Positions 6,469 through 29,228 of a DNA stretch of 29,228 bases are shown here, one piece after another. Both the position numbers and the translations under genes were made by a program. The DNA is from a virus. A model generated the notes under the pieces. That model was not told where the DNA came from and made no database searches. It saw only the letters and a list, made by a program, of their open reading frames with translations. The stretch lies in IMG/VR virus record IMGVR_UViG_3300010338_000991. One strand, 5' to 3'. The first letter of the stretch is position 1. Each line of letters begins with the position of its first letter.

Positions 6469-6897
6469 TCATGATCGAATGTTATTTGTCCACTCTTTTC
6501 TTTCCCACACTCGCATAATGATTGCGTCATTGCATCCGTATCGCTTCCACGCATGAATGCACACAATTTGGCTGTCATCGTTCCAAATCACGCCGTTAAG
6601 CGCATCGAATACACCCTTACATAGATTATCTATGTCTGGTCGCGATGGCTTATATACGCTTCTTTCTCGCAGTTCTGCGATGCGCTTCTTCCCCCACGAT
6701 TTTGGATGTTTCCAAACGAACTCGACAGACACATACAGATCACCGGATAGCGATCGCATGTCTTGAGTGGTTTGCGCCAATGCCATTGCCGTTATCGCTT
6801 TTTGGTAATCGGTTACGGCTTTGCTCTGGTAGCTGTGCTTACCCATGCGAAAGCTTTGCTTTGCTTTCGGCGTGATGTCGAAATATAGGCTGATCAT
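6469..6897 (-). CDS. rusA: RusA-family Holliday junction resolvase (ORF track extends to 6909)
   Basis: Motifs KPSRPDIDNLCKGVFDALNGVIWNDDSQIV typical of RusA; GGAG 8 nt upstream of the ATG at 6897. Confidence 0.8.
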   Translation of the reverse strand: MISLYFDITPKAKQSFRMGKHSYQSKAVTDYQKAITAMALAQTTQDMRSLSGDLYVSVEFVWKHPKSWGKKRIAELRERSVYKPSRPDIDNLCKGVFDALNGVIWNDDSQIVCIHAWKRYGCNDAIIMRVWERKEWTNNIRS

Positions 6898-7060
6898 TTT
6901 CCGCTCCATAGAAAGATCAGGAAAAATATGATGCCTATGCCGGCAGCGATGTTCAGGTGTGGAATGTTCACCCGAAAAACATACGCAATCACCAGCGGAG
7001 CCTCTGCAAGTGTCGCTATCAGCAGACTTATATCTGCTATTTTATGTTTCAATTTCTTAC

Positions 7061-7288
7061 TCATGATTTTCTCCTTTGCATTGCCATGTCTTTATCCGCC
7101 AAAAGCGCGTCCGTAATCTCCTGGAAGTGCTTACCAATCCCATTGCGCTCGTATCCATTCGTTCCAGCTAGCCATGCGTAGAATTGCCGATCACTGATGT
7201 TATGTATCCGGCAAAATCCGGTGATCGAATATCCGCGATCCCGTATCGCCTTCTTTATTTCCATTCCTTGATCTTTTGTTATTCTCAT
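7061..7288 (-). CDS. Small putative HTH DNA-binding protein (75 aa)
   Basis: Start ATG overlaps the upstream stop (TAATG) with GAGG upstream; helix-turn-helix-like segment YSITGFCRIHNISDRQFYAWL. Confidence 0.4.
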   Translation of the reverse strand: MRITKDQGMEIKKAIRDRGYSITGFCRIHNISDRQFYAWLAGTNGYERNGIGKHFQEITDALLADKDMAMQRRKS

Positions 7289-7566
7289 TATCTTGCCTCG
7301 CAATTTTCGCACACGTAATAATTGCCATGATCAGCCACCTGCTTCCATGTATATAGTCTGCCGCATTTGCCACAGCGAGCTATGCTATGCGCTTTGATTT
7401 TTTCGTATTCCTTGCCTAAGTTTTTTAGCGATCTGCGCAAGGCAATTTCTGTCTCTGCGTGTTTCAAACTCGCTCTTATCCTGTGCTTATCAATTAGCTT
7501 TGCTCGGCGGGCAAAATAACCCGCCAGAGCAATTGCGATAATGGTTATGCATATCATTATGATCAT
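7288..7566 (-). CDS. Membrane-anchored zinc-ribbon protein (about 92 aa; ORF track extends to 7608)
   Basis: AAGGAG 8 nt upstream of ATG 7566, which overlaps the RecT stop (ATGA); N-terminal TM helix; C-terminal CGKCG..CENC. Confidence 0.4.
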   Translation of the reverse strand: MIIMICITIIAIALAGYFARRAKLIDKHRIRASLKHAETEIALRRSLKNLGKEYEKIKAHSIARCGKCGRLYTWKQVADHGNYYVCENCEAR

Positions 7567-8534
7567 TTTGAATCTCCTTCTAAACTTGTTTTGTTTTCGT
7601 TCAGCCATGTTTCTACTTCGTCAAGTGCGGCATGGCGTGTCGCGCTCTGGATTTTCGGCAACCACTCTTCTAATTCTTCTCCGGTAGCAAGTTTCGTCAT
7701 TCTTTCAATTAGCTCGACTTGCCGCTCTTTTATTGTTGGTTTTGCGTTCGCACCGCGCAATATCGCGGCGAGATGGTTATGGTATTCATATAGATCATGG
7801 AAGTTCGTGCATTCGGCAATCATGCTACACCCTAAATGTTTTTGGATGCTCGAATGCCTGCGAACCTCATTATCAAAGCCGTCAATTTTGTTATCCACAA
7901 GGTTTCGCATGACGCCCTGTGTCGCTTTCATGAGCAGATCAAACTCTGATTCGCCTGCCGGGGCAGGATCCGGAACCGACTCGAACTCCGCGTCAATCGC
8001 ATCGTGATGCGCGCTTGCTTCCGGCACTTCTTGCGCATCGTTACCAGAAGTAACAAGATCAACAGCCTCTTCATGAGACAGCATGCCAAACACGATATCC
8101 GGGAACAGATCATTGACCGCGTAGCTAATCGCTCGCGCCTTCAGCATGCGTTGCGGGTATTTGCGCCAATTGTCCTTTTTAGCAAGCTCGGCACGGATCG
8201 CGTCTTGCATTGTAAATGTGATCTCTACGGACTCAACTTGGCCATCCCTGCGCTTGCGGCTCATTTTCACGATGCATCGTTCTGCAGTGGCATCAATCTC
8301 ACAGCCATTGTATTCAGGGTGGTTCTTGGCCAGTGCCAACTTGAGATCGGCCTTTAAACTCGGCATGCCGTTGACATTGTAGATATTCATCAGTGCTGTC
8401 GCTGCGTTTAATCCGAGTGCCTGGCCAGCACTCAGAACGAATAGCACGTCAGCAGGGTTCCTGTGAGCATGGAGCCGGCTTTGCGCCAGCTCCTTCGAAA
8501 TCGATTGCAAGGCTACAAGATCGTTCATCATCAT
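7563..8534 (-). CDS. recT: RecT/Bet-like single-strand annealing protein
   Basis: Segment NWRKYPQRMLKARAISYAVNDLFPDIVFGMLSHEEA resembles the conserved core of lambda Bet and E. coli RecT; AAGGAG upstream of ATG 8534; acidic C-terminal extension. Confidence 0.65.
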   Translation of the reverse strand: MMMNDLVALQSISKELAQSRLHAHRNPADVLFVLSAGQALGLNAATALMNIYNVNGMPSLKADLKLALAKNHPEYNGCEIDATAERCIVKMSRKRRDGQVESVEITFTMQDAIRAELAKKDNWRKYPQRMLKARAISYAVNDLFPDIVFGMLSHEEAVDLVTSGNDAQEVPEASAHHDAIDAEFESVPDPAPAGESEFDLLMKATQGVMRNLVDNKIDGFDNEVRRHSSIQKHLGCSMIAECTNFHDLYEYHNHLAAILRGANAKPTIKERQVELIERMTKLATGEELEEWLPKIQSATRHAALDEVETWLNENKTSLEGDSK

Positions 8535-8548
8535 CTTAATTCTCCTTT

Positions 8549-8881
8549 TTATTTAGTTAATATTTGTTTTACCATTTGAACCATGTCTATCGGCGTAGAA
8601 AGCGCATCCTTCACGCGATCTACCATCTCATCATATGCGGCGGCTCTTGCGGCGCACTCAGGGCAAAGATCGTCTTCGTCAAGTTCGCCTTCAACAAACT
8701 CTTTCTCGCAATCATCGCAGAAATACGCCTCATAAACATCAGCCGATCCGCATACTGGGCATATGTTTATGTATTCATCTTTCTCCCAGTTTTCCGAGCC
8801 ATTGCCGATGCGTCCAGCACGATACAACACTGTATCCGGATCGTAAAACTGTGATTCGCAGTCACTGCATTTCCATGTCAT
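8549..8881 (-). CDS. Cys-rich zinc-ribbon protein (110 aa)
   Basis: CSDC..CPVC and CDDC..CPEC pairs; GGAGG upstream of the ATG. Confidence 0.45.
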   Translation of the reverse strand: MTWKCSDCESQFYDPDTVLYRAGRIGNGSENWEKDEYINICPVCGSADVYEAYFCDDCEKEFVEGELDEDDLCPECAARAAAYDEMVDRVKDALSTPIDMVQMVKQILTK

Positions 8882-9663
8882 CTTTTCCTCCCTGTTCTGG
8901 CTTTAATGTGGTATGCAATATCGAATTCATTGCAGAAACCAATAACTGTCTCAACTGCGTTATTATAGAAGCTCTGATAATCAGGATAGGTGGATACCAA
9001 CTTGTTATAATGCAACCTGCCAAAGATAATCCTATCAGTGAAGGAAACTTTATCAAGTAATGACACCAAGTCTTGCTTTACTATATTGGGCGTTGGATAT
9101 GGTTCTATACTCACCCACGTTCTACAACCCAGATCATGCAAATTCTTTATGCTTGCCAGGCGGGTAGGGTAATCTGCGGAAAATGGTTCATATTGCTTTC
9201 TGAAGCCTTCATCGAAAGATACCAGTGAAATGCCCCATTCATGCTTTCTATCAAACCTCGATAGTTCCGAAGGCAGTAATCCTTTGGTTAGCGCTGTGCA
9301 CTTGATGCCATAATGATCCAGTAGCTTGATGATCTCGAGGCTCATTTTCGTTACTTCAGGGTATCCACTCATGAATGGGTCTGTGGTAAAGCAAAGATGC
9401 ACGGACTTAATGCTTTTCTGCTTCCTTGGGATTTCTTTCTTCAGCAGATCAAGAGCGTTTTCAACCAGCCTTGGTTTCAGCCAATCGTCGTAGTCTTTTA
9501 TCCTGCCAAATCTGCGAGCCATCATGAAGGCGTAACAGGGATAAGTGCAACCATGAGAACAACCTAACACATGGTTTATTGTGAAGTCTCCGTATTCTAC
9601 ACCTGTTTTATAGAGAAGCTGTTTTCTTAAATTAGTCTTGCTGGTTGTTTCCTTGTCGCTCAT
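8878..9663 (-). CDS. Hypothetical protein with N-terminal Cys cluster (GCSHGCTYPCYA), possibly DUF5131 (phage Gp37/Gp68)-like
   Basis: N-terminus EYGDFTINHVLGCSHGCTYPCYA resembles, from memory, the conserved start of DUF5131 proteins; not a canonical radical-SAM CxxxCxxC. Confidence 0.4.
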   Translation of the reverse strand: MSDKETTSKTNLRKQLLYKTGVEYGDFTINHVLGCSHGCTYPCYAFMMARRFGRIKDYDDWLKPRLVENALDLLKKEIPRKQKSIKSVHLCFTTDPFMSGYPEVTKMSLEIIKLLDHYGIKCTALTKGLLPSELSRFDRKHEWGISLVSFDEGFRKQYEPFSADYPTRLASIKNLHDLGCRTWVSIEPYPTPNIVKQDLVSLLDKVSFTDRIIFGRLHYNKLVSTYPDYQSFYNNAVETVIGFCNEFDIAYHIKARTGRKR

Positions 9664-9869
9664 AGCTCTATCTCCAGTTGTTCAGGATTATTGAATAACT
9701 GGTTTTCATCATTAGAGTCAGGTATCCACAGTAGCTGTTTGCTATAAACACAGCCGTTGTCGCGGTGTATCCAAGAGTATCCGTAGATCGGGCTGTAGTC
9801 GCAGGGCGGCATTAAGGTGTGGCATACGGGACAAAAACGTATAGGTGGGCGTTCTCGTTTGTGTTCCAT
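9660..9869 (-). CDS. Small Cys-rich protein (69 aa)
   Basis: AAAGGAG 6 nt upstream of the ATG; CPVC..PPC motif. Confidence 0.4.
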   Translation of the reverse strand: MEHKRERPPIRFCPVCHTLMPPCDYSPIYGYSWIHRDNGCVYSKQLLWIPDSNDENQLFNNPEQLEIEL

Positions 9870-9875
9870 TGTTTT

Positions 9876-9906
9876 CTCCTTTATTTTATTGTGTTTATCA
9901 TTTCTG
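9876..9906. repeat. Copy 1 of a duplicated 30-bp element (minus-strand sense ATGATAAACACAATAAAATAAAGGAG)
   Basis: Near-identical to 11919-11955; both copies end in an SD sequence directly upstream of a minus-strand start codon. Confidence 0.6.
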
Positions 9907-10005
9907 TCAAGTCCTGAAATGGCGGACTGTTTTTTAGCTTTTGTTGTTTAGCCTAAGCCCCTACATATAATCCCGCTACCGAGCAGGGTTGGCAAAAAGT
10001 GAAAC

Positions 10006-10878
10006 TTACGCAGCATCATATAGTTGGGCAGGTATCTGGTAGTTAATGCCGGCATGCAGGCGACAGTGATTGTAATCGTGGATGGACAATTTGATCAACT
10101 CCCTGGCCAGGCGTTTGCTCTTCAGGACCTTATGGATCAGGTATTCATGCTTCAGGGTATTGAAGAAGCGCTCTATTTTGGCATTGTCATAGCAGTGGTT
10201 TTTCCCCGTGAAGCTTATAGTCAGGCCATGGGACTGGAGTTTTTTCAGATATCGATAGGAACAATACTAGCAGCCATGGTCTGAATGGTGGATGGCTCCT
10301 TTCAGTTCCGGCGTGCTTTTCAAAGCCTTATTAAGGCAATCCAGAGCCCCGTCAGTGCGCAGATTGTTGCTGATGTTGAAGCTGAGTATCTTACGGGAAT
10401 ACATGTCCATCAGAACCGACAGGTAGAGAATGCCTTCGGTGGTGTGGATATAGGTGATGTCGGCGCAGATCGCCTGGTTGGGACGGGTTATAGGTAGTCC
10501 CTTGATCAGGTTTTCAAAGCTGGAGTCATAAATACCGGGGATAGACGTGCGAACCTTCCTGTAACGCCGGGACAGGACCAAGCCGCGATCGCGCAGGATC
10601 CTGTGGAGTTTGTCACGGCCGATCCCAATCCCCAGGTTGGACAACTCATGCCACAGCTTGCGGATGCCGTAAGCAGGATGCGCCGCCCTGATCTTAAGTA
10701 CCTCGTCCACAATCATCTGCTCGTATTCCGCAACCTTCTGGGAGGATGCCAGGGTCTCATAATACCAGGACTTGCTCTTGTTGAGATTCTTGCAGATGGC
10801 GCTCATGGACGCTTTGACAGAAGCCGCTCCAGCGTTCTTCTTTGCTCGGGGGACAGCCTGGAAAGTGAAGTTTTTTTT
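10006..10878 (-). pseudogene. IS3 transposase OrfB (DDE catalytic domain) interrupted by one in-frame TAG at 10267-10269
   Basis: Translation reads ...AIHHSDHGC, then TAG, then a further 86 in-frame codons (YCSYRYLKK...GKNHCYDNAKIERFFNTLK...) up to TAA at 10006. Confidence 0.7.
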
Positions 10879-11218
10879 CAGCCTCGCTGATGTTCTCGTT
10901 GACCACCTCCACATAGCTCTGAAGGCAAATATTGTGCAGGGTGACAGAGGCCAGGGCGGACTCCAACTCCTTGATCCGGTCTTTTTGCTCTTGCAGTATC
11001 GATTTCTCGTCTTTCATCTCAATCCTCACGTATCTTCTTATTACTTGATCCTTTCCGTATTTGCGGAGCCACTTGTAGATCGTGGTTCTGCCATTGATTT
11101 CATAAAGACGGGTTGCCTCTGCTATTGTCAACCTTCCTTTATCAATCTCCTGAACAACTTTCAACTTGAACGCCTCACTGTAGCGAAGCGTTACCTGGGC
11201 GATGGACTGTTTGGCCAT
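10757..11218 (-). CDS. IS3 transposase OrfA (HTH and leucine-zipper part)
   Basis: AAGGAG upstream of ATG 11218; N-terminal HTH-like LTIAEATRLYEINGRTTIYKWLRKY; coiled-coil segment; overlaps OrfB in the -1 frame. Confidence 0.8.
   Translation of the reverse strand: MAKQSIAQVTLRYSEAFKLKVVQEIDKGRLTIAEATRLYEINGRTTIYKWLRKYGKDQVIRRYVRIEMKDEKSILQEQKDRIKELESALASVTLHNICLQSYVEVVNENISEAEKKLHFPGCPPSKEERWSGFCQSVHERHLQESQQEQVLVL
10871..10877 (-). other. Programmed -1 ribosomal frameshift site A_AAA_AAA for OrfAB fusion transposase
   Basis: Minus-strand codons GAA AAA AAA in the OrfA frame; OrfB frame is open in -1 from this point. Confidence 0.5.
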
Positions 11219-11258
11219 TTTTTACTCCTTATTTTAGTCCACCTTTTTCAGGACACCT

Positions 11259-11286
11259 CAGCCAGGCGGGAGATCCCGCCTGGCTG
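11259..11286. repeat. Perfect 12-bp-stem hairpin (CAGCCAGGCGGG agat CCCGCCTGGCTG) abutting the IS end
   Basis: Inverted repeat read directly; 10 nt downstream of the stop of gene 11297-11539; no U-tract on either strand. Confidence 0.5.
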
Positions 11287-11296
11287 GGTAAATGTT

Positions 11297-11539
11297 TCAG
11301 CATCCGCAGGGAGTTCCCCCGCGGTATATTCTACCGCAGGAGTACTCCTCTTCCTCCCACTGACACCCGCAATGGGTGCAGTGCACCACCCTTGTTCCGA
11401 GATAGTAGGTCCCGTTGGGACCCCTATCTTCATCGCAAACGAGGGGGTTCCGATACTCTGCGAGGAGGTATTTCTCCTCGATGAGCCTTGCGGCGAGAAG
11501 ATCGCCGCAAAGATTTGTTAGGGTCATTTGCTTTTTCAT
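11297..11539 (-). CDS. Small Cys-rich protein (80 aa)
   Basis: AAGGAG upstream of the ATG; CTHCGC..C..CGC cysteine pattern. Confidence 0.4.
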   Translation of the reverse strand: MKKQMTLTNLCGDLLAARLIEEKYLLAEYRNPLVCDEDRGPNGTYYLGTRVVHCTHCGCQWEEEEYSCGRIYRGGTPCGC

Positions 11540-11739
11540 GGTATCTCCTTTTTTAGGTGAGCCCTATATTTCCCTTTCGGGTGGCTCACTCTATATGTGT
11601 ACAAGATAATCAATGCCGGTATTCTGTCAAGAAGTTTTTTCACTTTTTTTGTCTTTTTTTTTAGCCCCATGCCGCAAGCCATTGTAGCGATAAGACTTAC
11701 GGCATAAAACTTTTTTGCTCACGCTATTTGTTCCAGTTT

Positions 11740-11910
11740 TTAACGATAATCTCGTCTGAGATCCCGGCCGCATGGATCACCTTTTTTACTGCCTCCGGTG
11801 GCAACGTCTCGAAAAGCGTAACCACCGCAACGCATGTGTCGGCAAGCTGGTGTTAATGGAACAGGCTCTTCCAGCATACGGAAAAGATTGTCATCGTGTT
11901 CTTCAAACAT
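11740..11910 (-). CDS. Small ORF (56 aa), not in the supplied track
   Basis: ATG at 11910 preceded by AAAGGAG at 8-nt spacing; translation MFEEHDDNLFRMLEEPVPLTPACRHMRCGGYAFRDVATGGSKKGDPCGRDLRRDYR. Confidence 0.3.
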   Translation of the reverse strand: MFEEHDDNLFRMLEEPVPLTPACRHMRCGGYAFRDVATGGSKKGDPCGRDLRRDYR

Positions 11911-11918
11911 TTGTCATT

Positions 11919-11955
11919 CTCCTTTATTTTGTTATTGTGTTTATCATTTTTTCTG
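11919..11955. repeat. Copy 2 of the duplicated element; overlaps the last codons of gene 11924-12307 and the SD of the small ORF
   Basis: Minus-strand sense CAGAAAAAATGATAAACACAATAACAAAATAAAGGAG; compare 9876-9906. Confidence 0.6.
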
Positions 11956-12307
11956 CCAGGTGCTTGCGATCTCGCATTGCGAAACCGTAGCGCAAAACGG
12001 CAATCAACACATCCATCTCGTCGGGAATTCCGCGAGCCTTGACAGCATCAATGTGGTCAAGCAGATTCGGATAGCGAATTTCGCCCTTGCGCACCGGTGG
12101 CTCAGGATAGCACTCGTGACAATAGACGCTACGAGTGCATGCTTGCCAAGCGAACGGATCAATCGAATCGTTCATAATCGCGTCATAGTGACCGTGCGCG
12201 CCTATGTAATCGTAATCAGGCACGCGGATCATGCCGGAACCGGAACACCAAGCGCAAGCCGGATTGTGAACGATCGTGCCGGTAGGCTCTTTCGCTTTGA
12301 AACTCAT
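11924..12307 (-). CDS. Hypothetical protein (127 aa)
   Basis: ORF whose start overlaps the upstream stop (ATGA); no motif recognised. Confidence 0.45.
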   Translation of the reverse strand: MSFKAKEPTGTIVHNPACAWCSGSGMIRVPDYDYIGAHGHYDAIMNDSIDPFAWQACTRSVYCHECYPEPPVRKGEIRYPNLLDHIDAVKARGIPDEMDVLIAVLRYGFAMRDRKHLAEKMINTITK

Positions 12308-12861
12308 ACTTTCACCACCTTGATTTGCTTTTTCCTGTAGCTTGCGGCACTAAACGGAATCAGAGTATAGAACTCCACCAAGCGGTCAATAATGCGCTCA
12401 CCGTATATTTCACCTATCAATTCGCAGGACAAATTCGTGGTGATAATACAGCGATTGAACTTGCCTTCACGATAGCGTTCGTATTGCATGGCGATCAGAT
12501 TCGCGAAATAAGCCCTTGCCGCAGGCGTGTCCATCTCAGTGCCAAGATCGTCAAGCACCACGAGATCATAACTCAAGTAGCGTTCCAGTTTAGCGATCTC
12601 GTCACTTCTTGCCTTGCCGTCAAGCGCGCTTGCTTTCAAGTATTGCGCATACATCGATTGTGCGCTGATGCCTATCGCGGAAAAATGCGGATCATTGTCA
12701 TGCTGTTCCGCGATGTGATTATACACCACCTCTGCCGCAGCAGTCTTGCCGCATCCAGGCCTTCCGATAAACAACCAAGCAAACGGGTCTCCACTCGCTA
12801 CGATTGGCTCGATATAAGCGTGTAACTTCTGCTGTGGAATATACCAATCAGGATGTTTCAC
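12304..12861 (-). CDS. DnaC/IstB-like AAA+ ATPase (helicase loader)
   Basis: Walker A GRPGCGKT and Walker B LVVLDDLG in the translation; sits directly downstream of the replisome-organiser gene. Confidence 0.75.
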   Translation of the reverse strand: MKHPDWYIPQQKLHAYIEPIVASGDPFAWLFIGRPGCGKTAAAEVVYNHIAEQHDNDPHFSAIGISAQSMYAQYLKASALDGKARSDEIAKLERYLSYDLVVLDDLGTEMDTPAARAYFANLIAMQYERYREGKFNRCIITTNLSCELIGEIYGERIIDRLVEFYTLIPFSAASYRKKQIKVVKV

Positions 12862-13637
12862 GTCATCTCCTTCCCGATAAAATCGGTAACATTGTTAATC
12901 TGCTCAATGCGGCTCATTTGTTTTGCCGCGCTTGCGTTCTTATCCTTGCGATATTTGCCGAGTATCTCGTCATGATCTCCGGCAAACACCGGAAAGCCGT
13001 TCTTTCTGCTCAGGAACTCGGCAAGTTTCCATTGATACGAGAAAAAGCAATCAGGATCATTGATAACGGCATGATAGTTTTCTATGCCTTGCTTTATCTC
13101 GGCTAACGTGTATTCTTTGCAGCGTTTTGCGACGGCTTTCTCAATGTCGCTTGTGAGCTTCTTGCACCTAAGGCTCTGCGCCTTAGCGTTCCAATGCTCA
13201 ATGATCTCGCTTGCGTAGCTTGGCTGCTTAGGCGATTGTTTGGGTGCTGGTGTTTCTGGCTCTGATTGAGCTTGTGCTTTAGCTTTGCCGCCGATAGCGC
13301 CTGCCACGCTCCTCACTTCCGAAATCCTCTTGCGCTTTTCCAGTGTTTCCTGAACGATATCGGCACTGTATTTGTTGTCACACAAGATAAACGCCTCAAT
13401 TGACACGCAATAAGAAAAGAAGCGCTCAAGCTCATCGCAGTCAACGCCATAATCATCTGCATAGATCTCGATATCATCATGCTCTATCCAGCCACCGGAG
13501 CGCATCATTATCTCAATGCTAATATAATACATAGCATATCCCTTAAGCTTGCCAAACCTCGCCTTAATTCTCCGCATCTGTGGCTCATTGTGCGAATCAA
13601 TAGAGTGTTTGAACCATTTTTCGGGATTATGATTCAT
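12858..13637 (-). CDS. Replication initiation / replisome organiser with DUF4373 (Lin1244-like) N-terminal domain
   Basis: N-terminus WFKHSIDSHNEPQMRRIKARFGKLKGYAMYYISIEIMMRSGG resembles the DUF4373 signature of phage DnaD-like organisers; Lys/Ala-rich linker. Confidence 0.6.
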   Translation of the reverse strand: MNHNPEKWFKHSIDSHNEPQMRRIKARFGKLKGYAMYYISIEIMMRSGGWIEHDDIEIYADDYGVDCDELERFFSYCVSIEAFILCDNKYSADIVQETLEKRKRISEVRSVAGAIGGKAKAQAQSEPETPAPKQSPKQPSYASEIIEHWNAKAQSLRCKKLTSDIEKAVAKRCKEYTLAEIKQGIENYHAVINDPDCFFSYQWKLAEFLSRKNGFPVFAGDHDEILGKYRKDKNASAAKQMSRIEQINNVTDFIGKEMT

Positions 13638-13816
13638 TATTTCCCCCGATGTTCTACCATGAACTTATCAAGGTCTTGAATGTCAAACATCATCTCCTTT
13701 CCGCCGGGACGGGAATACTGCACCTTGCCCTGCTTTGCGTATCTCCTGAGCATGTATTCAGTAATGCCCAAATACTTGGCTGCTTGTGACGTTTTAAGAT
13801 ATCTCTGGGCAATCAT
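13637..13816 (-). CDS. Small HTH DNA-binding protein (excisionase/MerR-like), first gene of the minus-strand unit (ORF track extends to 13987)
   Basis: GGGAGA upstream of ATG 13816; HTH segment LKTSQAAKYLGITEYMLRRYAKQGKV. Confidence 0.5.
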   Translation of the reverse strand: MIAQRYLKTSQAAKYLGITEYMLRRYAKQGKVQYSRPGGKEMMFDIQDLDKFMVEHRGK

Positions 13817-13970
13817 GTTTTTCTCCCGTTGATGTAATTGCTTTTGTGTTTGTGTGTCTGGCTCATAAGAACCTCCTTTTAATTTCTGAATCCACCAAAA
13901 TACAGCCGCAAATCCTGTAAAGCATTTTCTTTGATTTGTGTTGACTTGTATTAATGTGAATGCGTAAATC

Positions 13971-14096
13971 AAGCAAATGCTAAGCAAATGCTAAGCAAAT
14001 GCTAAGCAAAATCAAGCAAACCGAAGCAGATAAGATAAGATAAGATAAGATAAGAGTAGATGAGATTAGATGAGATTAGAGGAGATTAGAATAGAC
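13971..14096. repeat. Iteron-like tandem repeat array: AAGCA-containing units at 11/11/11/10/10-bp spacing, GATAA x5, and four 10-bp units (TAGATGAGAT x2, TAGAGGAGAT, TAGAATAGAC)
   Basis: Read directly from sequence; located in the divergent intergenic region upstream of the replication module. Confidence 0.7.
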
Positions 14097-14142
14097 TATC
14101 ACTTTGCTAACGCAAAGATGATATATACACCATGAAAACCGT

Positions 14143-14160
14143 TTTCGTGACGTCACGAAA
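14143..14160. promoter_or_regulatory. Perfect 18-bp palindrome TTTCGTGACGTCACGAAA (candidate operator)
   Basis: Exact two-fold symmetry; overlaps a second palindrome GAAAACCGTTTTC (14134-14146); lies about 45 bp upstream of the TTGACA box. Confidence 0.45.
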
Positions 14161-14203
14161 TTGGTTAAGGCGATGCTGCCGGATCACCAAAATCACATTT
14201 TTC

Positions 14204-14231
14204 TTGACAAATAATTAATGCTGATTATATT
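14204..14231 (+). promoter_or_regulatory. Sigma70-like promoter candidate (TTGACA, 16 bp, TATATT) for the plus-strand unit
   Basis: Hexamers read directly; a TATAAT also occurs at 14244-14249. Confidence 0.4.
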
Positions 14232-14262
14232 GTAATCATGAGCTATAATTTTGATCACGATT

Positions 14263-14306
14263 TTGACATTGACATTGACATCGACTCGATTAACATCGAC
14301 ATCGAT
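14263..14306. repeat. Hexamer array TTGACA x3 in tandem followed by TCGAC/ATCGAC/ATCGAT repeats
   Basis: Sequence ttgacattgacattgacatcgactcgattaacatcgacatcgat, ending 47 bp upstream of the ParB-like gene start. Confidence 0.4.
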
Positions 14307-14352
14307 GAAAAAGACGAGCGCAAACACAATGTGTCTCGCATGGAGGCGATGA

Positions 14353-14820
14353 GTGAAGACAAATAAGCTTAAATTCAATCCCAATAATCCTCGCAAATGT
14401 AGTAAAGACAAGCTTGAAAAACTTATGCGCTCAATCGAATCATTCCCTGAAATGATGAAGTTGCGCCCAATGGTTTACGATCCCGAAACCATGTATGTTT
14501 TAGGCGGGAATCAGCGCCTCGCAGCTATTAGAAAGCTCGGCATGAAAGACATCCCGGATGAGTGGACGATCGCCGCCACAGATCTCACCCCAGAACAGCA
14601 AAAGGAATTTGTTCTGCGAGATAATGTGCAGTTCGGCGATTGGGACTTTGAGATGCTGTCTGCTGAGTTTGGCGAATTTGATCTTGAAGAAATGGGCATG
14701 GATATGCCAGAGATAGAGGCAGAAGAGCCATATGTCCCAAGTGAAACTAAAGAAATTGACACAGATATAGCATTTGATCACAAGTGCCCAAAATGTGGAT
14801 TTGAGTTTAATGAATCTTAG
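14353..14820 (+). CDS. ParB-like nuclease (ParB/Srx) domain protein with C-terminal zinc ribbon
   Basis: GGAGG 5 nt upstream of a GTG start; N-terminal KLKFNPNNPRK...MYVLGGNQRLAAIRKLG resembles the ParBc domain; C-terminal CPKCG. Confidence 0.6.
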   Translation: MKTNKLKFNPNNPRKCSKDKLEKLMRSIESFPEMMKLRPMVYDPETMYVLGGNQRLAAIRKLGMKDIPDEWTIAATDLTPEQQKEFVLRDNVQFGDWDFEMLSAEFGEFDLEEMGMDMPEIEAEEPYVPSETKEIDTDIAFDHKCPKCGFEFNES

Positions 14821-15829
14821 ATATAACATTAAAGACATTGCAGATATAGAAAAGACGCATAAAGCATTTTCTACTTTTGCGTGTGGTGGGGGATCGTCAA
14901 TAGGCTACAAACTGGCAGGGATTGAAGTTATTGGAGCAAATGATATTGATCCTGAAATGAAGTGGCACTATACAAAAAACCTTAACCCATCGCTATATTA
15001 TTTATGCCCAATATCTGACATGATATCAATGGAATTGCCAAACGAGCTTTTTGCCCTTGACATATTAGATGGATCACCTCCATGCTCAACTTTTAGCACA
15101 TCTGGGAACAGAGAAAAGGATTGGGGCAAAAACAAATACTTTAGGGAAGGTCAAGCAAAGCAAGTTCTTTCTGACTTGTTTTTTGACTACATAGACCTTG
15201 TCAAAAGGCTACAGCCAAAAGTATCTATATCAGAAAATGTAACTGGAATTATCAAAGGAAATGCTAAATATTACGCCAAAACAATAGTGCAAAAACTTGA
15301 TGAAGCAGGATATGTTACTCAAGTTTTTCAGATAAACGCAGCAAATTGCGGTGTCCCTCAAATGAGAGAACGCGTGTTTTTTATAAGTAGGCGCAAAGAT
15401 ATAGACAAAAAACCACTTGTATTATCACCAAAAGAAAAAATACTTACTGTATGGGATGCTATACACGACATACAGGATTTGACAGATGATGAGATTAGGG
15501 ACACAGCCCCAAATAACACTGACTTGAAATATTGGAACAAAACCAAGCCAGGATGCAGCTATTCAAGCGTTCACGAAAAAGGCAGCTTTTTTTCTTATTA
15601 TAGGCTAAACAAAGACAAACCAAGCAACACTATCCAAGCAAACCATCAATGTTATACTCACCCATCAGAATGCAGAAACCTAACTTTTAGAGAAGTCAAA
15701 AGACTGTCGTCATTTCCAGATGATTACGAAGCAAAAACAGATAACATCGGGAAGTATATGTGCGGAATGAGTGTGCCTCCATTTATGATGTATCAAGTAG
15801 CAAAAGCAGTAAAAGAGCAGTGGCTATAA
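14810..15829 (+). CDS. DNA (cytosine-5)-methyltransferase (ORF track starts at a TTG at 14774)
   Basis: Motif I FACGGGSSIGYKLAG, catalytic PC motif GSPPCSTFS, ENV motif ISENVTG, QxRxR motif VPQMRERVFF. Confidence 0.85.
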   Translation: MNLRYNIKDIADIEKTHKAFSTFACGGGSSIGYKLAGIEVIGANDIDPEMKWHYTKNLNPSLYYLCPISDMISMELPNELFALDILDGSPPCSTFSTSGNREKDWGKNKYFREGQAKQVLSDLFFDYIDLVKRLQPKVSISENVTGIIKGNAKYYAKTIVQKLDEAGYVTQVFQINAANCGVPQMRERVFFISRRKDIDKKPLVLSPKEKILTVWDAIHDIQDLTDDEIRDTAPNNTDLKYWNKTKPGCSYSSVHEKGSFFSYYRLNKDKPSNTIQANHQCYTHPSECRNLTFREVKRLSSFPDDYEAKTDNIGKYMCGMSVPPFMMYQVAKAVKEQWL

Positions 15830-15865
15830 TGTGTGATGAGACAATATCCGGACAAGGAGTATCGA

Positions 15866-16813
15866 ATGATTAGAACCGCTGAATGTGTAACGCCGAAGCA
15901 TCCAGACAAGCTGTGCGACCGCATAGCTGATGCCATATTGACGGAGGCAATAAAGCAAGATCCAAACGCCAGAACGGCAATAGAAGTTTGTGCCGGTCAT
16001 GGCATTGTGACCGTTCTGGGCGAAATGACAACCACAGCCTTTGTTGATGTTGCTGACATAGCCCGCAGGATTACAGATGGTGAGTGCGGCGTGCAAGTCA
16101 ATATTGTGCGACAGTCACCCGACATAGCGATGGGAGTTGATGCCGGAGGCGCCGGAGATCAAGGCATTATGATCGGATATGCCTGCAACGAAAATGATAA
16201 TTTTATTCCTACGGAATTAAACCTCGCCAGAGATTTGTGCCAATTCATTTATATGCGACACGAAGTTGACGGCAAAACTCAAATCACAATGGACGGCAAT
16301 AAAATATCAACTATTGTCGCAAGCTTTCACAACACAAAGAGCGGAGATCTGAGATCCCTTGTGCACCAGTGGCTTGATGGCAGAAAATGCGAATCGATAA
16401 TGTGTAATCCTGCCGGCGATTGGAAAACCGGCGGGCTTAACGCTGATTCTGGCGTAACGGGAAGGAAACTTGCCATAGACAACTACGGAACCAGAACACC
16501 CATTGGCGGCGGCGCATTTAGCGGAAAAGACCCCACCAAAGTGGATCGCTCTGCCGCGTATATGGCAAGAAAAATTGCTGTCGATATCTTGCGCCAGAAA
16601 AATGCAAAAGAAGTTATCGTTTCGCTTGCTTATGCAATCGGCGTTCCTGATCCGGTAATGACGGAGTGTATTGCCGATGGAAATCATGTTGACATTTCAC
16701 ACTACAGCTTGACACCAAAAGCAATTATCGATGCGCTTGGGCTTCGTGATATTGATTATGAAAAAACAGCAGCGTGGGGGCACTTCGGCATCGGCATGCC
16801 GTGGGACAAATAA
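15866..16813 (+). CDS. metK: S-adenosylmethionine synthetase (MetK), compact form of about 315 aa
   Basis: AAGGAG 6 nt upstream of ATG 15866; motifs KHPDKLCDRIADAILTEA, GAGDQGIMIGYA, DGKTQIT, GGGAFSGKDPTKVDRSAAYMARKIA and C-terminal TAAWGHFG, aligning with bacterial MetK. Confidence 0.85.
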   Translation: MIRTAECVTPKHPDKLCDRIADAILTEAIKQDPNARTAIEVCAGHGIVTVLGEMTTTAFVDVADIARRITDGECGVQVNIVRQSPDIAMGVDAGGAGDQGIMIGYACNENDNFIPTELNLARDLCQFIYMRHEVDGKTQITMDGNKISTIVASFHNTKSGDLRSLVHQWLDGRKCESIMCNPAGDWKTGGLNADSGVTGRKLAIDNYGTRTPIGGGAFSGKDPTKVDRSAAYMARKIAVDILRQKNAKEVIVSLAYAIGVPDPVMTECIADGNHVDISHYSLTPKAIIDALGLRDIDYEKTAAWGHFGIGMPWDK

Positions 16814-25676: not shown

Positions 25677-26027
25677 ATGAGCAAATTCAAAAACTGTTTC
25701 GCTACGGCGAATGATATGCGCGACTATGATATCGTCATTGACGGTGAGATCGTAGCGAAGGCGCATACTCTGACGATTCAGGATAAAGCGGAAATAGAGC
25801 GCAAGAGCATCACAAAAACCTTAAACGCGAACGGCGTCAATACGGACATCAATTCTAATGCGCTCATGCTTTATACCGTATTGCGCGCTTTGGATTCATG
25901 GATCATTGACGCACCGCTAAACGAAGAGAACCTTGGCAAACATCCGATGCTGATGGACATGTTCAATGCCGTTACCCAACACGAAACAGATGTTGCCCAA
26001 ACCATGCGAGATAATGAAAAAAACTGA
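25677..26027 (+). CDS. Tail assembly chaperone (G-like)
   Basis: Small acidic protein directly upstream of the tape measure gene, ending in the slippery heptamer A_AAA_AAC just before its stop. Confidence 0.55.
   Translation: MSKFKNCFATANDMRDYDIVIDGEIVAKAHTLTIQDKAEIERKSITKTLNANGVNTDINSNALMLYTVLRALDSWIIDAPLNEENLGKHPMLMDMFNAVTQHETDVAQTMRDNEKN
26018..26024 (+). other. Programmed -1 frameshift site (A AAA AAC) giving a G-T fusion chaperone
   Basis: Heptamer is in X_XXY_YYZ phase with the 25677 frame; the -1 frame is open from here into ORF 26036-26350. Confidence 0.55.
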
Positions 26028-26035
26028 TACGATCG

Positions 26036-26350
26036 GTGGAGGTCTTATTCCGCACAGACCCCGCCGATCCATTCCGAGATAATAACATGAAAACGTCCAT
26101 GTGTCGCCACTGCGAGTTAGACCAAACCTGCGAAAAACTACAGGATTACCCTAAAATCAGCCATCTATCCGCGTGGCTGATTAAGTGGCATTATGAAATT
26201 GAGGCGGGATTTGTGATCTATCCGCGTGGTGGCTCGTGGGAAAACCAATGGCAATGGTTCATCGATGGTCTCGGCATCGTGCGGAACACTGTTGCGCAAG
26301 AAGAAATGCGAAAAGCTCAAGAAGGATCGAAAAAACATGGCAGATTATAG
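26036..26350 (+). CDS. Tail assembly chaperone T-extension (expressed as a -1 frameshift fusion with 25677-26027)
   Basis: ORF in the -1 frame relative to the G gene, overlapping the tape measure start. Confidence 0.5.
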   Translation: MEVLFRTDPADPFRDNNMKTSMCRHCELDQTCEKLQDYPKISHLSAWLIKWHYEIEAGFVIYPRGGSWENQWQWFIDGLGIVRNTVAQEEMRKAQEGSKKHGRL

Positions 26351-28811
26351 CGGAGACCTTAAATATCGCATCACCGTAGATGGCGCAGAGGCGTCACAAG
26401 CTAAGCTTTCCGGTCTCGGAGCTTCGTTCAAGAGTGTCGCTTCGACCGTCGCAGCAAGTGTTGCAGCGATGGTGTCCTTCCGAAAAGCAATCGAGTTTGC
26501 TGGCAATGCAATGGCAAACTACGAGAATGCGATCCGAGCGGTACGCCAGCTTGACGCGACCCTGGTGTCCACCGGCAGAGCAGCAGAATTCACCTCGCAA
26601 GAACTCAAGAATATGGCTTCAGAGCTGCAAAGGCTAAGCAATTTCGGTGATGAAGACATACTGCAGGGCGTAACGCTGCAGCTGCTTCGCTTTGATGCCA
26701 TCGGTAGGGATATCTTTCCACGCGCACAGCAGCTTGTAATTGACCTTGCCGAATCTATGGGCGGTGTAGAAAATGCTGCAAGAACTCTTGGCATCTCTTT
26801 GGCTGACCCGACTCTTGGTCTCACGCGCTTACGCAGAATAGGCGTGGCCTTTAATTCCACACAGGAAGCGCAAATTAAAAACTTTGTGGAGACAGGTAAA
26901 GTAGCTGAGGCACAAGCGGTTTTGATGTCTGCGTTAGAGGAGCGTTTTGGCGGATTGGCTTTGGCGTCTGTATCTGCGACCACACAAATGAAAAATGCTT
27001 GGGGCGATTACTTAGAAAGCGTTGGATCTTCGCTCTCCTTTTTCGATGGAGTCAAACGCGGCATTACTGCAATGTTGGTCAGTGTAGCGGGGGCGCACGA
27101 TGTTACATCGAAATCCGCTCAGCTTGCTGCGCTGGAAACACAAAAAGCTTGGGGTGAGGCAACAATAAACATTGGCAATATTATAGCCGATATATCTACC
27201 GGAGTTGTTGCTGTTATACATGGCGTGATCAAGGCGTTTGATTTTGCCGGGAAGGCGATCCCCACTGCGCTTGGGCTCGCTATGGAAGGAGCGCATTTAG
27301 TCGTTGCGTCTTCAATGAATTCCATCGTTGACCTAATTTTCTCACCAATAGAAGGCTTGTTTAATGATATTGATGCTGTTTATGCTAAAATAACTGGGAA
27401 ATCGCTTGGTATTACCAATGCCTTTGACGCTGTACGCATCGATGTTACTGGTGTAAGGGCAGACATTTCCAGCAGCGCAGACGATCTTTCTTTGTTATGG
27501 ATTGATGTTAAGGAGTTTTATCGCACGTGGGGAGATGTTGCCTCCGGTATCGCGACAGGAAAATTTAGCAACGCAGACGAACAAATTAAATTGCTGCGCG
27601 AAGGCATTGACGCACAGCGTAAGGCAATTGAAAACGGGCTTCTAAACATAGATTTGCCTGAATCAAAAGGCAGCAAGGAAGATCGCGGCGGCATGGGCGG
27701 CGATATTGCGCAAATTACAAACTATTATGATACCATAATGGCATTAAACAATAGCACATCGCAGCAGATCATGGATAAGTACAACAAAATGCGTGCTGCG
27801 CTTGACGAATATTTGCGCGCCAATACCAAAAGCCAAGAAGAGTATCAAAACAAGCTTAGACTTGGTCTAGCAGAAATCGCCAAAGCAGAAACAGCCGAAT
27901 TGGCTGCGGAAAAAGAACGCCAGCTGTCTATGGTAGAATCCTTTGTCAATTCTGTTATCAATCTTAATGCGTCTGAAAAAGATGCCATTGCCAAAAAGTA
28001 TGCGGATATGCGCACAACAGCAGAAGCATTTTATGCGGACGGCTTGATGTCTGAACAAGCGTTTAGCGATGCAATTACACAAATAAACCAAGCAGAACTT
28101 GATGCCATTACAAATTTGGAAGCTAAACGTCTTGATCTGCGCATACAAACGCTTGGTAGCATTCGCGGTTTTGAAGATGAGTTTTACCATGCCAGGATTA
28201 CACAGATTGACGCCGAAACCGAAAAGTTGCGCGAAGCAGGATTAGCAGAGATAGAAATTGAAGCATGGAAGCTGCAGCAGATAGCTGAACTTGAAACTGA
28301 AATTCACCAGCGCAGAATTGACCAAATGTCTGAATATGAGCGCTTTGTTCTGGGTTCCGATCAGCGGATAATGAACACGCTGGAAGGCTCTCTTGCCAAT
28401 TCACTCGCAAGCATGATTTCCGGGACCAAATCCGCATTAGATGTGTGGAGATCTCTTTGGGCGAATGTTGCGCAAGCCGTTATTGCAGAAATCAGCAAAA
28501 TTATCGTAAAGGCACTATTCGCCAACACATTGCTCAAGGGCTTGGGCATGATCGGCAATTTTTTCTTCCCCGCAGCTGGAATAATAACACCAGTTGTAGC
28601 GCAAGGCGCAAATTTGCTTAGCAACAATCCTATACACAACACGCCAACAATCCCAAGCAATAACAACAATGTCGTGCAATTGATGAGGAAAATAGATTCA
28701 TTAATTGAATCGATAGAAAATAACCCGCCACAAATATATACTCAATTAATAGAAGGCGTTCCGCTCAATAATGCAGTGCGCAGGGCTTCGGTGATGGCTA
28801 ATGAGTTATAA
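26337..28811 (+). CDS. Tail tape measure protein (about 824 aa; ORF track starts at 26226)
   Basis: Long Ala/Glu/Lys/Gln-rich protein after the chaperone pair; hydrophobic Gly-rich C-terminal segment. Confidence 0.75.
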   Translation: MADYSGDLKYRITVDGAEASQAKLSGLGASFKSVASTVAASVAAMVSFRKAIEFAGNAMANYENAIRAVRQLDATLVSTGRAAEFTSQELKNMASELQRLSNFGDEDILQGVTLQLLRFDAIGRDIFPRAQQLVIDLAESMGGVENAARTLGISLADPTLGLTRLRRIGVAFNSTQEAQIKNFVETGKVAEAQAVLMSALEERFGGLALASVSATTQMKNAWGDYLESVGSSLSFFDGVKRGITAMLVSVAGAHDVTSKSAQLAALETQKAWGEATINIGNIIADISTGVVAVIHGVIKAFDFAGKAIPTALGLAMEGAHLVVASSMNSIVDLIFSPIEGLFNDIDAVYAKITGKSLGITNAFDAVRIDVTGVRADISSSADDLSLLWIDVKEFYRTWGDVASGIATGKFSNADEQIKLLREGIDAQRKAIENGLLNIDLPESKGSKEDRGGMGGDIAQITNYYDTIMALNNSTSQQIMDKYNKMRAALDEYLRANTKSQEEYQNKLRLGLAEIAKAETAELAAEKERQLSMVESFVNSVINLNASEKDAIAKKYADMRTTAEAFYADGLMSEQAFSDAITQINQAELDAITNLEAKRLDLRIQTLGSIRGFEDEFYHARITQIDAETEKLREAGLAEIEIEAWKLQQIAELETEIHQRRIDQMSEYERFVLGSDQRIMNTLEGSLANSLASMISGTKSALDVWRSLWANVAQAVIAEISKIIVKALFANTLLKGLGMIGNFFFPAAGIITPVVAQGANLLSNNPIHNTPTIPSNNNNVVQLMRKIDSLIESIENNPPQIYTQLIEGVPLNNAVRRASVMANEL

Positions 28812-29228
28812 ACTTGTTTACATTGATCACAATGATTACGAGCACACTTTTTATAATGTGCTTAATTTTAGCATTGATCCTATACAAGCTAATACAGACA
28901 ACATTTTTACTTCATCCGGCAGAAAGCTAAGCATAACAATCCCCTATGATGCTTCCGCCATAAACGCATTCCACAATAACGATCAGCCGAATGAAATATA
29001 TCCGGAATATTTAGCAGGGCACTTTAGATTCTTTAAGGATAACGAAGTAATTTTTATTGGCATGGCAAAAGTTACATTTATCGACATTGATGAGCAGAAT
29101 GCAGAGATACAATTTAGGATTTCAGACGCTCTTGATCTTTGGATCGATTTAGCCAAATCAACAAACTTTGATGTAAAGGCTGCGGAACAAAAAGTGATAC
29201 ATTTGCGACCATCAACCGGAGATTATAC
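28801..29228 (+). CDS. Tail protein, 5' part (ATG at 28801 overlapping the tape-measure stop; runs off the window end and continues at 1-1184; full product about 494 aa)
   Basis: Open frame from ATG 28801 with no stop to the window end; the last 127 nt equal bases 1-127 and the frame matches ORF 93-1184; position immediately downstream of the tape measure gene. Confidence 0.5.
   Translation, partial: MSYKLVYIDHNDYEHTFYNVLNFSIDPIQANTDNIFTSSGRKLSITIPYDASAINAFHNNDQPNEIYPEYLAGHFRFFKDNEVIFIGMAKVTFIDIDEQNAEIQFRISDALDLWIDLAKSTNFDVKAAEQKVIHLRPSTGDY
29102..29228. repeat. Terminal overlap copy 2: identical to 1-127
   Basis: Same as above; unique genome length is therefore about 29101 bp. Confidence 0.85.

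Follow-up and report, generated by a model that had tools for sequence, protein, structure and literature searches.

An IS3-family insertion sequence with a disrupted transposase gene in the early region of a complete siphovirus-like phage genome

Can an insertion sequence (IS) lodged in the early region of a small phage genome still move by itself, and from which bacteria did it come? The question is raised by a viral record of 29,228 nucleotides (IMG/VR record IMGVR_UViG_3300010338_000991; ‘the window’ hereafter denotes this whole stretch), in which a block at 9905–11260 had been read from the letters alone as an IS3-family element of canonical architecture but approximate boundaries, possibly marking a recently active or prophage-derived genome (the original prediction). 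The reading favoured here, at a probability of roughly 0.85, is that the block is a non-autonomous IS3-family copy native to Candidatus Cloacimonadota, fixed in a phage lineage and without a transposase of its own.

The element and its two lesions

The following features of the element are numbered on the window; all lie on the minus strand.

9905–11260, minus strand: complete IS3-family insertion sequence of 1,356 bp with TG...CA termini (end-to-end alignment with the Cloacimonadota contig L001)
11236–11260, minus strand: left terminal inverted repeat (IRL), upstream of OrfA, TGAGGTGTCCTGAAAAAGGTGGACT, the same in all sampled copies
11218–10757, minus strand: OrfA, a helix-turn-helix (HTH) DNA-binding protein of 153 amino acids (aa) with an intact open reading frame (ORF) (Pfam HTH_28, E = 4.9e-9)
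10871–10878, minus strand: slippery A-run of 8 A (9 A in six host copies)
10267–10914, minus strand: 5′ part of OrfB (HTH_21 and the N-terminal rve core with the catalytic residues D1 and D2), in the +1 frame, ending at an in-frame TAG
10006–10266, minus strand: 3′ remnant of OrfB past the nonsense codon, with the catalytic Glu (IERFF...K motif) and the rve_3 region, closed by TAA at 10006–10008
9905–9929, minus strand: right terminal inverted repeat (IRR), reverse complement TGTCAAGTCCTGAAATGGCGGACTG; the last six nucleotides on the IS strand are TTGACA

The element belongs to the IS3 family, and the original description of an HTH OrfA followed by a DDE OrfB is borne out by profile searches. 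With glutamine put in place of the TAG to give a conceptual OrfB, the NCBIfam model transpos_IS3 (NF033516) is matched at 238.9 bits against a cutoff of 160 (E = 9.7e-71, model positions 98–368 of 369), and Pfam recognises rve (E = 2.5e-20, 73.1 bits), rve_3 (residues 218–283 of the conceptual protein) and HTH_21, while OrfA aligns to positions 2–86 of the same NCBIfam model; the similarity to IS3-family members on which the prediction had staked itself is present. A DD(35)E triad can be read from the translation, with D1 in AICADITY, D2 in HHSDHGC(Q/*)Y after 59 residues (the asterisk being the stop codon) and the Glu in KIERFFNTLK after a further 35, and a lysine stands at +7 after the catalytic Glu, as the family signature demands. 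The length, 1,356 bp here and 1,357 bp in intact copies, falls within the range of about 1.2–1.55 kb that characterises the family.

The ends of the element, held to be approximate in the original prediction, are exact at 9905 and 11260, because L001, a high-coverage Cloacimonadota contig of 1,357 bp that consists of the element and nothing else, aligns from its first to its last base (97.1% identity, one gap), and more than 10 further copies have the same two end points. The termini TGAGGTG...CTTGACA are kept in all copies, and the inverted repeats are imperfect, as had been noted, with TGAGGTGTCCTGAAAAAGGTGGACT matching TGTCAAGTCCTGAAAT-GGCGGACT at ~18 of 25 positions. The description ‘visibly GC-richer’ holds for the direction of the difference, with a guanine-plus-cytosine content of 49.0% in the IS against 45.8% in the rest of the genome; the contrast is weak, 8% of equal-size windows elsewhere being at least as rich. 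Neither a second copy of the IS nor a solo inverted repeat was found elsewhere in the genome.

Set beside IS911, IS3, IS150 and the IS629 of Shiga toxin (Stx) phages, the element is of similar size (~1.36 kb), has TG...CA termini and imperfect inverted repeats, and encodes an HTH OrfA ahead of a DD(35)E OrfB of the rve type, the two overlapping at an A-rich slippery site; its relatives make 3–4-bp duplications. It departs from these members in that its intact copies carry A9, not A6G, with no stable stimulatory structure downstream, and in that the OrfB of the phage copy lies in the +1 frame and is broken by a nonsense codon, with no target duplication flanking the element. Among annotated IS3 transposases its closest counterparts are distant: OrfB is <40% identical to any plasmid-borne protein (best matches in Bacteroidota, annotated only generically as ‘IS3 family transposase’, with none of the subgroups IS150, IS3, IS51, IS407 or IS2 named) and <34% identical to the IS629-type copies of Stx phages. 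Megablast found no match to the IS among 50,697 phage records or 72,556 plasmids, and no relative of its OrfB was found in IMG/VR viral contigs.

It is in the coupling of OrfA to OrfB that this copy departs from its own relatives. The A-run comprises 9 A in six host copies (L001, L002, L011, L075, L076 and L082), including an IS relative only 85% identical; these nine-A copies have an OrfA of 138 aa (138 aa in L001, 137–138 aa among the relatives) and an OrfB in the −1 frame, with the heptamer gaA_AAA_AAA in phase for a −1 slip. In the phage copy, with its 8 A, the frame of OrfB is +1 to that of OrfA (11218 − 10914 = 304; 304 mod 3 = 1), and the last 39 aa of its 153-aa OrfA are read from another frame than in the 138-aa protein. 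A −1 slip at A_AAA_AAA therefore cannot fuse OrfA to OrfB here; it only restores the 138-aa OrfA, and the heptamer that the original prediction had listed as a slippery site does not join the two frames in this copy. The arrangement typical of the family, with OrfB in the −1 frame and a fusion made by slippage, is found in the same six host copies and is absent from the phage copy, a difference that is a one-base deletion within a family member and not a different architecture.

The second lesion is an in-frame TAG at 10267–10269, within HHSDHGC*YCS of OrfB and four codons past the second catalytic Asp, where four host copies (L001, L002, L075 and L089) have CAG, the Gln codon of the DxGxQY motif. 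The TAG precedes the catalytic Glu and the rve_3 region, and both are thus encoded but not translated. With the CAG-to-TAG nonsense mutation and the contraction to 8 A combined, the copy cannot make its own transposase, and ‘canonical IS3 architecture’ is a label that does not fit it, OrfB being in the +1 frame and its third catalytic residue cut off by the nonsense codon. The two lesions differ in standing: the nonsense codon is unambiguous, whereas the contraction alone is probably, though not certainly, a defect, since loss of one A in the transcript could still give a fusion from an eight-A copy.

Recoding of TAG to Gln was considered and ruled out: several phage genes terminate with TAG, no interruption appears in the long late genes when they are translated with the standard code, and no transfer RNA (tRNA) genes occur in the complete genome.

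How the intact element would be expressed can be proposed by analogy. Beside the 138-aa HTH OrfA it would make an OrfAB DDE transposase of ~404 aa by slipping at the conserved nine-A run, either through −1 ribosomal frameshifting on A_AAA_AAA or through the insertion of one A by RNA polymerase, and it would move by the copy-out/paste-in route of IS3 elements with target duplications of 3–4 bp. Ribosomal frameshifting is possible in the nine-A copies, where the heptamer is in phase. Slippage by RNA polymerase appears at least as likely, because the run is longer than frameshifting needs and A9 is kept across 15% divergence, and because no stable structure lies downstream (none 3′ of the A-run beyond shuffled controls, z = +1.1) and there is a precedent in IS1447, an IS3-family element with A9 in which slippage of ~16% in each direction has been demonstrated experimentally in transcripts, a run of 7 A being enough (PMC6211511). 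Compared by description, the likeness to the IS1447/IS120 subgroup of Clostridium thermocellum extends to the nine-A run at the end of OrfA, the need for slippage to fuse OrfA with OrfB, and direct repeats of 3–4 bp that a minority of copies (2/15) lack (PMC6211511). The two differ in their termini (TA in IS1447, TG here), inverted repeats (48–49 bp against ~25 bp) and hosts (Firmicutes against Cloacimonadota); moreover, IS1447 is reported to need a +1 shift, whereas the nine-A copies here have OrfB in the −1 frame with the heptamer in phase.

Host copies and fixation in the phage lineage

All 12 loci with relatives of the IS that were recovered in a scan of genome contigs belong to metagenome-assembled genomes (MAGs) of Candidatus Cloacimonadota. 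The phage copy is 97.1% identical to L001, 98.1% to L075, 97.6% to L089 and, over the first 582 bp, 99.1% to L011, and the host copies differ among themselves by a similar amount. Nucleotide identity thus establishes the element as a bacterial IS, as originally supposed, and as one native to Candidatus Cloacimonadota; because its identity to the MAG copies reaches 97–99%, it also points to Cloacimonadota as the host of the phage.

Divergence from the host copies bears on the age of the acquisition. Coding differences from L001 comprise 25 synonymous and 10 non-synonymous changes, a synonymous-dominated pattern such as would be expected of divergence among functional copies before insertion. 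Only 4 substitutions are private to the phage copy when it is compared with five host copies (2 synonymous, 1 Val to Ile and 1 nonsense), from which it follows that acquisition was evolutionarily recent and that inactivation was among the few later events. ‘Recently active’, as the original prediction put it, does not hold for a copy that cannot make its own transposase, recent though its arrival was.

Observations on the relatives concern the A-run and the flanks. L089 (ENA ERZ27257488 k141_24355), a contig of 1,438 bp with a chromosomal flank, carries 8 A, with GCC in place of GCT before the run; host copies therefore vary in the length of the A-run, and the eight-A state is not private to the phage. 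In L076, L079, L080, L081, L084 and L085 the 85%-identical relative stands, at its left flank, directly after degenerate GTTAGACGTGAGACG-like repeat arrays, which may represent a favoured insertion target or a class of repeats in Cloacimonadota genomes. In several short-read contigs of this relative the same left flank is joined to differing right flanks, a sign of misjoins caused by repeats in those assemblies.

Positions 1–127 and 29102–29228 of the window form an exact direct repeat of 127 bp, which shows that the assembly closes into a circle and that the phage genome, with 29,101 unique bases, is complete. When the 153-aa OrfA and the two phage proteins on either side of the IS were looked up, 12–14 contigs were recovered, 13 of them of 29.1–29.2 kb with different start points, from JGI 3300009712, JGI 3300009654, ENA ERZ795060 (SPAdes), ERZ27257400 (MEGAHIT) and Logan SRR4236668. 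Six fetched loci, from independent assemblies of at least four samples, match the window at 100% identity across the IS and 300-bp flanks, the 8 A and the TAG included, and the lesions are therefore neither sequencing errors nor chimeras. A chimeric join is likewise ruled out because a single IS, flanked on either side by phage genes, lies in a closed circle and is reproduced by different assemblers; the junctions, named in the original prediction as a point to be checked, are identical in SPAdes, MEGAHIT and JGI assemblies of different samples.

The same look-ups show the IS to be fixed in this phage lineage across the assemblies on record. The eight-A OrfA of 153 aa occurs on 13 large contigs and the 80-aa gene at one flank on 13, so that no IS-free assembly is on record; the 69-aa gene at the other flank occurs on 12, with one further contig ending inside it. 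A search of metagenome contigs for the IS-free junction pattern gave no match and is uninformative, the collection being without even a phage 30-mer.

In the favoured reading, one copy of the element would have transposed into the 71-bp spacer of an early operon in a siphovirus-like phage of 27.7 kb, co-oriented with the operon and between a hairpin and the ribosome-binding site of the next gene, a site and orientation that appear to be tolerated, presumably through read-through. The insertion would then have become fixed in the lineage, and the phage copy would owe its loss of autonomy to the nonsense mutation and the A-run contraction. Since intact copies have the same inverted repeats, mobilisation in trans by those resident in the host during infection is plausible.

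Insertion site and competing explanations

The site is defined by the following features, two of which overlap the ends of the IS.

11297–11539, minus strand: upstream flanking phage gene, 80 aa, Cys-rich ORFan; stop codon 36 nucleotides from the IS end
11259–11286, no strand: perfect palindrome with a 13-bp stem abutting IRL, made of 11 bp of phage DNA and the 2-bp terminal TG/CA of the IS
9883–9910, minus strand: hybrid sigma-70-like promoter match by consensus, TTGACA (IS end), 16 nucleotides and TAAAAT (phage flank), directed toward the 69-aa gene
9660–9869, minus strand: downstream flanking phage gene, 69 aa, Cys-rich; start codon 35 nucleotides from the IS end

The IS lies in the 71-bp spacer between the 80-aa and 69-aa genes, co-oriented with the early module, in agreement with the intergenic position between two small early genes given at the outset. 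The palindrome follows the stop codon of the 80-aa gene without a T-tract, and a terminator scan made no call there.

Several observations weigh against the interpretation as a simply inserted and then inactivated copy. No target-site duplication of 3–5 bp is present (the original prediction had found no unambiguous one): in IS orientation the flanks read CCTGGC before the element and GAAATG after it, and neither GGC with GAA nor TGGC with GAAA matches. The 85%-identical relative is flanked by TCT/TCT in L076 and by GACG/GACG in L084, and a duplication of 3–4 bp is therefore expected for the phage copy; since it is missing, the history of the site must involve more than a simple insertion. The loss is possibly due to a deletion mediated by the IS in the DNA next to it, or to recombination between two copies of the element, and the palindrome without a terminator T-tract would, speculatively, fit the removal of adjacent DNA. 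No IS-free relative of the phage was found, and the empty site could not be reconstructed. The case for inactivation is also narrower than two lesions would suggest: L089 is an eight-A copy with an intact OrfB in chromosomal context, A-runs of at least 7 slip both ways during IS1447 transcription (PMC6211511), and the eight-A state alone is thus no proof of inactivation, which only the TAG provides. Finally, OrfA remains an intact ORF, and the hybrid promoter leaves a retained function conceivable.

The explanation that survives best beside the favoured one, though an improbable one, takes up these last two points and sees a domesticated remnant, in which the outward TTGACA with TAAAAT drives the 69-aa, radical SAM (S-adenosylmethionine) and RecT-like genes, or in which OrfA or the truncated OrfB regulates by binding DNA or keeps the IS copies of the host in check. 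The promoter match is 11/12 and the best site within 9500–11700, measured against a sigma-70 consensus that may not be that of a host in the FCB (Fibrobacteres–Chlorobi–Bacteroidetes) group; its predicted transcription start, however, lies within the Shine-Dalgarno sequence that precedes the 69-aa gene, or downstream of that sequence. OrfA has 0 non-synonymous changes from L001 in the part that they share, and the inactivating mutation is one of only 4 private ones, yet the synonymous-dominated divergence would be older than the insertion. Presence of the IS in all 13 assemblies is what domestication would predict, but fixation in a single sampled lineage fits a neutral hitchhiker equally well, with no IS-free sister lineage against which fitness or expression could be compared. 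Doubtful, too, is a wider form of the idea, in which a virulent-type phage of an uncultivated phylum keeps a disarmed and co-opted IS (as a promoter, or through OrfA as regulator or inhibitor), the nonsense codon having been selected against self-transposition and the phage serving as a vehicle of the IS; were it true, the phage would move a trans-mobilisable IS between Cloacimonadota strains.

That the copy is still autonomous is very improbable. RNA polymerase slippage from 8 to 7 A would have to fuse OrfA with OrfB, and the TAG would have to be read through or suppressed. The first step has precedents in the ~16% slippage in each direction at the IS1447 A-run, where 7 A suffice (PMC6211511), and in the +1 shifts of IS elements, which are known only via transcriptional realignment (reviewed in PMC5009743), and L089 combines 8 A with an intact OrfB. 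The second step is opposed by the base after the codon (TAGT), by a genome that encodes no suppressor tRNA and uses TAG as an ordinary stop, and by the CAG of four sampled host copies; two events of low efficiency would be required in series.

An assembly artefact, in which a multicopy host IS was spliced into a phage contig or unrelated contigs were joined through a repeat, can be dismissed in spite of the missing duplication and the mismatched flanks often seen in short-read contigs of the related IS (L077, L078, L082, L083 and L085), given that junctions and IS are identical in JGI, SPAdes, MEGAHIT and Logan assemblies of different samples, that the contig closes to a circle with phage genes on both sides, and that the phage copy carries private variants (the TAG and 3 others) absent from host copies.

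The phage genome and what the element means for it

The phage is siphovirus-like, with PHROGs matches to a large terminase, a portal, a head maturation protease/morphogenesis protein, a major head protein and a tape-measure protein, and with Pfam matches to a Peptidase_M15_3 lysin and a Laminin_G_3 tail protein, in addition to a weak tail-tube match below the Pfam cutoff. A minus-strand block at 6469–13987 forms the early replication and recombination module, comprising an HTH_17 protein, a Lin1244_N replication protein, a DnaC/IstB-like ATPase, small ORFs, a radical SAM protein and RusA, with a RecT-like match that is weak and below the Pfam cutoff. No integrase, serine recombinase or other recombinase, and no repressor, was detected among all ORFs of at least 100 aa, and the genome was never seen embedded in a longer contig, all IS-carrying contigs being of the 20–50 kb class. 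With no lysogeny genes seen and a closed circle of 29.1 kb, the phage appears to be non-temperate, and the suggestion of a prophage-derived genome finds no footing.

Close relatives of the phage were not found in the IMG/VR viral-contig scans that were run. The 80-aa and 69-aa flanking genes have no relatives in IMG/VR viral contigs, and the 80-aa Cys-rich protein (11297–11539, minus strand) has no homologue except itself among 5.8 billion clustered proteins. The neighbouring radical SAM gene has 51 relatives in IMG/VR, all ≤66% identical, and the flanking phage genes (tblastn) have no syntenic match there.

This radical SAM gene (8878–9663, minus strand), which resembles a ‘DNA repair photolyase’, shares 93.7% nucleotide identity over 735 bp with a chromosomal gene (L070/L071, 6899–7633), of which a 79%-identical homologue occurs on contigs labelled Cloacimonetes (L072–L074). 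Both the chromosomal gene and this homologue adjoin an SNF2/PLD helicase, an MmeI-type methyltransferase/endonuclease and a GMT-wHTH protein, a setting that resembles a defence island; the similarity suggests a recent gene exchange between phage and host, possibly tied to defence or counter-defence. Capture of the gene by the IS was considered as an explanation for the missing target duplication and rejected, the host-like stretch of 93.7% identity covering only 8893–9627 and ending short of the IS boundary.

Three further loci lie away from the IS. Within the divergent intergenic region at 13988–14352 and its margin, an 11-bp tandem unit, AGCATTTGCTT, is repeated at 13971–14010 beside an array of ATCTT pentamers, and its copy number differs between assemblies, the ERZ27257400 contig having one unit fewer than the window; the array is iteron-like and, lying between the early and late operons, possibly marks an origin or a regulatory region. 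Genes for a ParB-like nuclease-domain protein, a C5 DNA methyltransferase and a MetK-like SAM synthetase (PF00438, PF02772, PF02773) stand together immediately before the terminase, at 14353–16813 on the plus strand, and look like a self-methylation or anti-restriction module with its own supply of SAM. Upstream of the tape-measure gene (26226–28811), two small ORFs of 116 aa and 104 aa (25677–26350, plus strand) occupy the place of the tail-assembly chaperone pair, which many siphoviruses express by −1 frameshifting.

Insertion sequences in phage genomes have been surveyed by Leclercq and Cordaux, who found 92% of phages to be IS-free and quoted a capsid limit of 105–106% of genome length (PMC3429520). 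Like the cases described there, the present IS occupies a non-coding and apparently non-deleterious site, and the 1,356 bp that it adds to 27,745 bp (+4.9%) bring the genome near that packaging limit (PMC3429520). The catalogued IS-bearing phages are mostly temperate or prophages, in contrast with a genome in which no lysogeny genes are seen and the copy is defective and fixed. Matches to IS3-like OrfB proteins occur in 301 of the 50,697 phage records; among these 301, Stx-converting phages are the largest named group and, together with Escherichia records, make up a large share.

An IS3 element in a phage is thus a case of a sort already known, and no new biology is added. For annotation pipelines and first-pass readers, the copy teaches that frame relation and OrfB integrity should be checked before an IS is called ‘canonical’ or ‘active’. 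For the phage, the element gives a complete genome a sequence-based host assignment to Candidatus Cloacimonadota, and it documents a fixed and disarmed IS in a small, apparently non-temperate phage near its packaging limit, a case that bears on how phages tolerate and shuttle insertion sequences.

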